DNA of 64,000 nt from Amphiscolops sp. MND2022 (taxonomy: Eukaryota), in NCBI GenBank assembly GCA_964187785.1, contig OZ076409.1, positions 68,574,001 to 68,638,000 of the forward strand, given 5' to 3'. Within the stretch, counting starts at the first letter, position 1. Each line of letters opens with the position of its first letter. Positions 29,498-30,264 of the stretch are shown piece after piece. The position numbers and the translations under genes were made by a program. The notes beneath the pieces are model-generated. The model was not told the DNA's origin. It was given only the letters and a program-made list of their open reading frames with translations, and did no database searches.

Positions 29498-30264
29498 AAC
29501 GACCTATCAAGATAAACACAAGCTCATCTACCCTTATTGAACAATTGGAAGATGAAAGGTCCCTTACGGACTCCCTAATCAATGAGTTACTATTGCTTCG
29601 ACAAAAACTCAATATCACCCAATATAAAGATGACACATTTGATTCTGATATGATACACGAGATCAGTAAAAAGCTCGACGCACTTGAGATGCGAGTCCTT
29701 CGTATCGAAAAGAAATCAATTCCACGGGATTGGAACCTCTACAAAGTTATTTGGAGGCTTGATCAATTTTCTGATATTTTTCAGAATGCTGAAAAATACG
29801 AAAAAAGTTTGTCTCATGTAAGAGCACCCTATTGTGATCCTAATAGCCTAAAAGACGTCTGTAGCCCAATCTTCTTCTCACAACCCTTTGGGTACACCTT
29901 TCATCTACGAGCTTACCCTTATGGCATCGACACTGCCAAAGGGAAATACATGTCAGTATGCTTGGCTATGTGTCCGGGACCCTACGATGAGATACTCACT
30001 TGGCCCTTCCAAGGCGTTATCGAGATACACCTCCTTGGTCAAGGCAATATTTACAAACCCTACAAACAGCTCATTGTGACGAATAACAATAACAGTGAGT
30101 GCTTCAAGAAACCTATTCCCACAGCCAGCAACACAGCAATCACCATCTTGTGCTTCATCCCACATGATGAACTCATGAACCCAGAGAACCCCTGGCTAAA
30201 AAACAATTCCATATTTTTCGAAGTAAAAGTCATAAATACCCTGTATGCCCCCCTTTCAACTTAA
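29498..30264 (+). CDS. TRAF-like protein: coiled coil plus C-terminal MATH/TRAF-C domain (probably entered by splicing)
   Basis: VIWRLDQFS, SPIFFSQPFGYTFHLRAYPYG, GKYMSV, GPYDEILTWPF, FKKP, WLKNNSIFFEVKV are hallmark TRAF-C motifs. No ATG at the 5' end; acceptor atttcAG at 29497. Confidence 0.9.

Follow-up and report, generated by a model that had tools for sequence, protein, structure and literature searches.

A conserved, host-derived TRAF gene without a RING domain in an env-bearing LTR retrotransposon of Amphiscolops sp.

The retrotransposon and its TRAF gene

The window analysed here is the whole stretch of 64,000 nucleotides taken from contig OZ076409.1 of Amphiscolops sp. MND2022, and it contains a 19.1-kb Ty3/Gypsy-type LTR retrotransposon with an env gene (positions 13231-32362). 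The 5' LTR (13231..15282, + strand; 2052 nt, TG...CA) has a TATA box near 13843 and a splice donor at 14011/14012, and the 3' LTR (30288..32362, + strand) is 2075 nt long. The insertion is young, since only one substitution and two indels separate the two LTRs and a target-site duplication (ATGT) flanks them. All genes are on the + strand, in the order gag, protease, pol, B, C1, C2, env, D, TRAF and 3' LTR. The LTRs and target-site duplication, the gag-protease-RT-RNase H-integrase order and the separate env ORF place the element among the Ty3/Gypsy elements with env.

The gag gene (15325..16719) has a weak Retrotrans_gag match (E 4e-4) and a dN/dS of 0.06. It is followed by a protease frame (16689-17603) and a pol frame (17426-22294), both identified with Pfam, the latter encoding a weak macro-like domain, RT, RNase H and integrase. 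In the ORF lists, protease and pol are two overlapping frames in the window copy and a single frame in copies of family 2, a related LTR family described below. The macro-domain-like segment ahead of the RT (17426-18000) matches PF01661 below the cut-off (E 0.089) and is poorly conserved or missing in some family-2 alignments. Three accessory ORFs without a Pfam family come next, namely B (24491-24901), C1 (25586-25804) and C2 (25804-26268), and dN/dS is 0.13-0.15 in both C1 and C2. The stop of C1 and the start of C2 overlap as TAATG, a stop-start arrangement, in both subfamilies of family 1, the family of the window copy, and duplicated family-2 ORFs show weak similarity to B and C2. Tandem arrays lie between the accessory ORFs at 25006-25566 (51/61-nt units, also present in subfamily B) and at 26581-26732 (two 76-nt units). 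The env-like glycoprotein gene (26847..28955, 702 aa) matches the Monjiviricetes_fusion family (PF24664, E 4e-39) and has a dN/dS of 0.02. ORF D (28984..29475, 163 aa; dN/dS 0.11-0.15) is a separate gene whose C-terminal half is conserved in family 2; it has eight unnamed homologues, no Pfam family and no usable Atlas match. Its layout, with an acidic and proline-rich N-terminal half, a basic cluster and the conserved C-terminal half, gives the impression of a viral transactivator.

The last gene of the element is TRAF (29512..30264, + strand, 250 codons), which in the window copy lacks a start codon at 29512-29514 and forms part of an open frame of 257 codons from stop to stop (29491-30264). 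The preliminary description of this DNA, made by reading the letters alone, had recognized canonical TRAF-C motifs preceded by a coiled-coil-like segment and ending 24 nt before the 3' LTR. The position is exact, with the stop codon ending at 30264 and the LTR beginning at 30288, and the domain assignment is borne out by Pfam matches of about 1e-21, both above the cut-off (TRAF-mep_MATH, E 7.7e-22; MATH_2, E 8.8e-22). Additionally, the 27 distinct PDB sequence matches are TRAFs without exception, with TRAF1 at the top (E 1.2e-12). An AlphaFold model based on a 21-row alignment (mean pLDDT 72, pTM 0.59) predicts N-terminal helices at residues 4-36 and 45-68 followed by a beta-sandwich, and its top Foldseek matches are TRAF1, TRAF5 and TRAF2 (E 4e-12 to 5e-12). 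The two predicted helices (29521..29715, + strand) form a putative TRAF-N-like coiled coil, which agrees with the coiled-coil-like segment noted earlier. Specifically, L, I or V occupies six of the six a/d positions of helix 2 and three of its 18 other positions, as compared to 6/10 and 6/23, respectively, in helix 1. The sandwich corresponds to the MATH/TRAF-C domain (29749..30231, + strand), for which the PF22486 and PF21355 matches and the PDB sequence and fold matches agree. By its predicted MATH sandwich and the preceding coiled coil, the product is a TRAF-domain protein, and it would presumably trimerise through the coiled coil.

Neither a RING nor a zf-TRAF family was matched by Pfam in the TRAF frame. 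The N-terminal RING and TRAF zinc fingers of canonical TRAF2/3/5/6 are absent, and the ORFs of sibling copies begin at the coiled coil. While MATH identity is clear, the TRAF-C motifs are less canonical than was first described. In canonical TRAFs, the groove motifs LRxYxNGDG, SxSF and A[ST]GCP serve receptor-peptide binding; in the element protein and in the host clade discussed below, the R-x-Y is kept but NGDG and A[ST]GCP are replaced.

Conservation among copies and expression

A search of the genome with TRAF, in which 148 of 514 candidates were scored, gave at least 35 matches of 98% identity or more as well as older subfamilies. Fifty copies were fetched, consisting of the 30 best and 20 older ones chosen by hand, and the alignment from env to the LTR holds in all 50. 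Since these copies had been found with TRAF itself, the search was repeated with D as an independent query (150 of 382 candidates scored). A TRAF match, paired by eye, lies directly 3' of D in each of the 71 family-1 D matches of at least 62% identity, and the matched frame is free of stops in 33 of the 34 youngest. A start codon equivalent to 29512-29514, 14 nt after the predicted splice acceptor, is present in 49 of the 50 fetched copies. The lack of a 5' ATG reported in the preliminary description is thus true of the window copy but private to it, and its 18-nt variant is found at a single place in the genome. From the next in-frame start, at 29650, the window copy, which no longer has its start codon, is predicted to yield a shorter product of 204 aa at most, if any. 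Of the 30 young copies, 27 combine the start codon with a 250-aa frame; the other three are one with 257 aa, one interrupted by an internal stop and the window copy itself. A frame of 249-252 aa survives in six of the 20 older copies, and the remainder are disrupted or lengthened, in many cases at homopolymer runs. The TRAF gene appears functional at the level of the family and broken at its start in the window copy.

The TRAF gene is probably read from an LTR leader exon that is spliced to an acceptor immediately upstream of it. The predicted 3' splice acceptor (29476..29497, + strand) consists of a pyrimidine tract and an AG that is present in 50/50 copies, as CAG in 35, TAG in 14 and AAG in one, while the 14-nt leader that follows varies freely. 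By a simple score it ranks 18 of 812 among the AGs of the element, although this score is crude, an equally good upstream AG being found for 8% of element ATGs and the acceptor of C1 being matched by 37%. The LTRs of subfamily B are about 74% identical, and among them the donor is present in 4/4 and the TATA box in 3/3, with the donor at 14011/14012 keeping its consensus form. Acceptors 5' of B, C1, D and TRAF are present in both subfamilies; the env acceptor with the highest score (26785), by contrast, is missing from subfamily B. The mRNA would accordingly join the LTR donor at 14011 to the acceptor at 29497, with translation from TRAF's own start codon.

The preliminary description had suggested a different route, in which alternative splicing from a donor within D at 29030 to the same acceptor would yield a D-TRAF fusion. 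The features on which it relied do exist, since the sequence has an acceptor at 29497, a GT at 29030 and a phase-1 match between the two. Also in favour of this route, both subfamilies have the leader in frame, and the GT of the proposed donor is found in 48/50 copies. However, the context of this donor is weak and variable, with CAG/GT in 23 of the 50 copies and GC in place of GT in two, and the splice would remove the C-terminal half of D, which is its best-conserved part. The leader peptide differs between the subfamilies (ERPIK versus KPSLK), and a clade of five loci (97 SH-aLRT) has an in-frame stop within the 14-nt leader, even though four of the five have an intact TRAF frame. Nearly all siblings (49/50) also possess a start codon of their own. 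Moreover, in family 2 the TRAF gene starts 2-7 nt after the stop of D, there is no acceptor between them and the two genes are separate frames, which suggests that the family-2 TRAF is made by stop-start coupling from D. A fused mRNA is therefore very unlikely.

Host origin and other mobile carriers

The family-1 TRAF derives from a clade of host TRAFs, as judged by sequence comparison. Members of this clade include two intron-bearing genes of this genome, L066 and L088, and proteins from elsewhere (P0011-P0017, P0021 and P0038). In the tree, the element TRAFs and the host clade lie on one side of a branch with support of 98/94, opposite 14 other TRAF-domain proteins, the outgroup TRAFs being from other organisms. 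In addition, an insertion of about 15 residues is common to the element TRAFs, L066, L088 and the unnamed homologues from elsewhere and is absent from the five canonical TRAFs that were aligned. Together these observations uphold the earlier proposal that a host TRAF had been captured. The element protein has diverged considerably from this source. Identity to the MATH domain of L066 is 39% in family 1, 48% in family 2 and 55% in a third family, while seven of nine matches to the L066 MATH exon among unnamed homologues are 72-94% identical. The host genes also differ in having introns and, in L066, the remnant of a zinc finger; their coiled coil is longer, they have a C-terminal tail and they evolve slowly.

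Both L066 and L088 have an intron after an H-R motif near the end of MATH, and both LTR families read through this position. The absence of the last host intron suggests capture by way of a spliced mRNA, with template switching onto a host mRNA as the presumed mechanism.

The donor clade itself looks RING-less. No RING-like motif was found in about 30 kb upstream of L066 or L088, in a scan that detected the RING motif of L107 as a control and that an intron-split RING could escape, and P0038 begins at a zinc-finger remnant. Because the donor clade appears to be RING-less, the absence of the RING would not be a disabling change made by the element. The preliminary description was correct that the protein lacks this domain, but the loss was probably inherited from the host clade. 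Host genes with a RING and zinc fingers were found (L071, L106 and L107), and no MATH exon of a host RING-TRAF was detected within about 40 kb downstream of these three. A TRAF3_RING family search gave no match anywhere and was likewise silent on its controls.

Mobile copies of this lineage are not confined to family 1. Family 2 is an LTR element with the same gene order, whose pol and env are about 70% and 60% identical, respectively, to those of family 1. Its TRAF is 323-330 aa long and 27-29% identical to that of family 1. About 120 of the 150 scored matches fall in the family-2 identity band, and all 12 that were examined are family-2 elements. Trees holding families 1 and 2 together were not rejected (p-AU 0.25) and the free trees leave the fork unsettled, so the two families may represent one capture or two. 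Family 3 comprises 27 rows at 52-58% identity in this genome (G000; L058:5218-9900, L072:1-6855, L076:3849-9900, L077, L090 and others). In the ten loci examined, the TRAF gene lies between long inverted repeats with no gag, pol or env match nearby, and it keeps the last host intron. The inverted arms extend for at least 1.5-2.7 kb and are 98-99.6% identical, and the repeat also contains 135-nt tandem units and additional ORFs that match no Pfam family.

Eight unnamed proteins (P0029, P0040, P0051, P0063, P0064, P0073, P0039 and P0003) belong to the same TRAF clade. Most of them read through the last-intron position as single ORFs, and they may be cargo of elements in related animals; matches to P0063-like elements in this genome are mostly known family-2 loci. 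On viral contigs, 13 pattern matches yielded none that was confirmed. At 77 loci with a TRAF match on metagenome contigs, many of which are short, no match to gag, pro, pol, env, D or C2 lay in the vicinity, and identity to the host clade stayed below 45% throughout.

This RING-less lineage is present in well over 150 mobile copies, compared to a handful of host genes. It is possible, if doubtful, that one host lineage was taken repeatedly and independently, as mRNA by two env-bearing LTR families and as DNA by the inverted-repeat element; such repeated capture would make the lineage the hub of anti-transposon or antiviral signalling in this animal and the element proteins its antagonists.

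Selection and proposed function

TRAF is under strong purifying selection, with a constraint equal to that of gag and pol and far from neutrality. Between the subfamilies, dN is 0.06-0.08, dS 1.2-1.3 and omega 0.047-0.065 (18 non-independent pairs). In two full-length comparisons, omega is 0.054-0.056 for TRAF, 0.06 for gag, 0.042-0.046 for pol and 0.02 for env. The family-2 TRAF has an omega of 0.085-0.19 (15 pairs), and constraint is weaker in family 3 (0.48-0.78, three pairs). The dS to subfamily B is 0.41-0.47 in gag-pro-pol (15325-22294) and 1.2-1.3 in env-D-TRAF (26847-30264), and it is saturated in ORF B. Because dS differs in this way between gag-pro-pol and env-D-TRAF, the family is a recombinant mosaic.

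What this conserved protein does can be approached through its relatives. The closest in architecture is vertebrate TRAF1, which also combines a coiled coil and MATH without a RING and is the best PDB sequence and fold match (PDB 5h10, 5e1t). However, the identity in the structural alignment is 22%, the clade insertion and altered groove are found in the element protein, and orthology lacks support. TRAF1 naturally has no RING, is akin to a dominant-negative TRAF2 and blocks TLR/NLR signalling when its MATH domain sequesters LUBAC (PMC6305416). A plausible but tentative reading is that the element TRAF is made on its own from a spliced mRNA and, as an accessory protein, competes with host TRAFs for their partners and thereby dampens defence or cell-death signalling. 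A protein with a coiled coil and MATH would trimerise and compete for the partners of the donor clade, and this competition would dampen the host response. This reading is favoured by the biology of TRAF1, the repeated carriage of the lineage by selfish elements and the extent to which the protein has diverged from a donor that evolves slowly. It is close to the decoy first proposed, but since both donor and element have changed groove motifs, a decoy of the classical TNFR/TLR kind cannot be taken for granted.

The same source describes TRAF1 as a largely positive, pro-survival adaptor downstream of TNFRs, and for this reason a positive mimic is a real rival to a competitor, if a rather unlikely one. 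The element protein would then be a gain-of-function, TRAF1-like adaptor through which survival factors are recruited and cells expressing the element stay alive, perhaps to the benefit of the host, as has been described for the IAP region of Burro1. Since the donor clade looks RING-less, the element would have copied a working adaptor architecture, and cIAP recruitment by TRAF1:TRAF2 heterotrimers exceeds that by TRAF2 alone (PMC6305416). A captured B-IAP region of the planarian element Burro1 is reported, at second hand, to protect stem cells (PMC13465017). Nevertheless, family 1 has dropped the conserved N-terminal coiled-coil segment of the host protein, which family 2 has kept, and the low MATH identity to L066 compared to that of the host orthologues fits re-targeting better than mimicry.

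A third explanation, less probable again, is that MATH was repurposed for the life cycle of the element, where it would bind Env tails, Gag or D, or recruit ubiquitin or trafficking machinery for assembly or exit, and would have no immune role. The env-D-TRAF order is fixed in two families, the dS of about 1.2 in this segment versus 0.45 in gag-pol implies that it travels as a module, and the groove residues are altered. However, the same host lineage occurs in the inverted-repeat element, which has no gag, pol or env match nearby, and from one family to the other TRAF retains just 27-29% identity as against 60% for env, a high rate of change for a protein that binds a conserved structural partner. 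Finally, that TRAF is a neutral passenger, a chance-captured host fragment in decay, might be supposed from the broken frames of most older copies (6/20 intact), but it has a negligible probability at an omega of 0.05 and a dS of 1.2, a finding that also answers the neutral decay considered in the preliminary description, and the recurrent frameshift near codon 66 falls within an A-run and is dispersed across the copy tree (five changes for six rows, like shuffles). That scatter is as expected of post-insertion slippage or assembly error, and a shared 'TRAF-dead' sublineage was also rejected.

Among the known systems, the competitor proposed here is most readily compared with the cargo of Burro/GYPSM1, giant Gypsy-like LTR elements of planarians that carry MATH_TRAF_C and have been proposed to meddle with apoptosis and ubiquitination (PMC6431247). 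Both are Gypsy-like LTR elements with an env akin to mononegaviral fusion proteins and a MATH_TRAF_C cargo, and in Dugesia tigrina the MATH_TRAF_C is in a separate accessory ORF (PMC6431247). In contrast, Burro exceeds 30 kb, encodes a polyprotein of 4,900-5,100 aa and has env between gag and pol, whereas the present element is 19 kb and has env as an ORF of its own, 3' of pol. TRAF-C is inside or upstream of ORF1 in Burro and is encoded by the last gene before the 3' LTR here. The cargo of Burro also includes BIR, BCL2, ankyrin and RING (PMC6431247), while Pfam finds no BIR, BCL2 or ankyrin in the scanned ORFs of the present element; the TRAF cargos themselves were compared by description. 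Because the element fails the defining architecture of Burro, it is regarded as working like the Burro cargo and is not filed as Burro. Megalocytiviruses encode RING-bearing TRAFs, of which ISKNV ORF111L shares with the element protein a coiled coil, MATH and capture from a host lineage (PMC3352826). It differs in its N-terminal RING, in belonging to a dsDNA virus and in binding TRADD and inducing caspase-8 apoptosis; of viral TRAFs it is the sole one to have been tested, and its pro-apoptotic action counts against the competitor proposed here (PMC3352826). Searches of the literature outside subscription journals and Repbase yielded the Burro and ISKNV precedents but no account of the element family, and TRAF is not mentioned in the accessible portion of PMC8532177.

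Overall, this multi-copy, env-bearing retrotransposon carries its own conserved gene for a RING-less, host-derived TRAF adaptor. Immune-modulating accessory genes are a hallmark of complex viruses, but for invertebrate LTR elements reports of them that are backed by selection data are rare. The general idea has a precedent in planarian Burro, which limits its novelty, while for the TRAF cargo described here the donor clade can be traced, capture has left a footprint in the form of an intron lost in the LTR families and kept in the inverted-repeat element, and purifying selection matches that on pol. If the protein is an antagonist of host TRAFs, invertebrate errantivirus-like elements would face innate or death signalling at the protein level besides piRNA silencing, and an unstudied clade of RING-less TRAFs would be a relevant node.

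The surroundings of the element contain other repeats. Those at 34341-35486, 41347-42501 and 53417-54648 comprise two 1.2-kb copies that are 90% identical and an inverted relative, and at 44333-50168 identical direct repeats of 183 nt, 5.6 kb apart, flank A-rich sequence. An older, broken family-1 copy (L050; G000:C1:68551983-68552744) lies about 22 kb upstream of the window.
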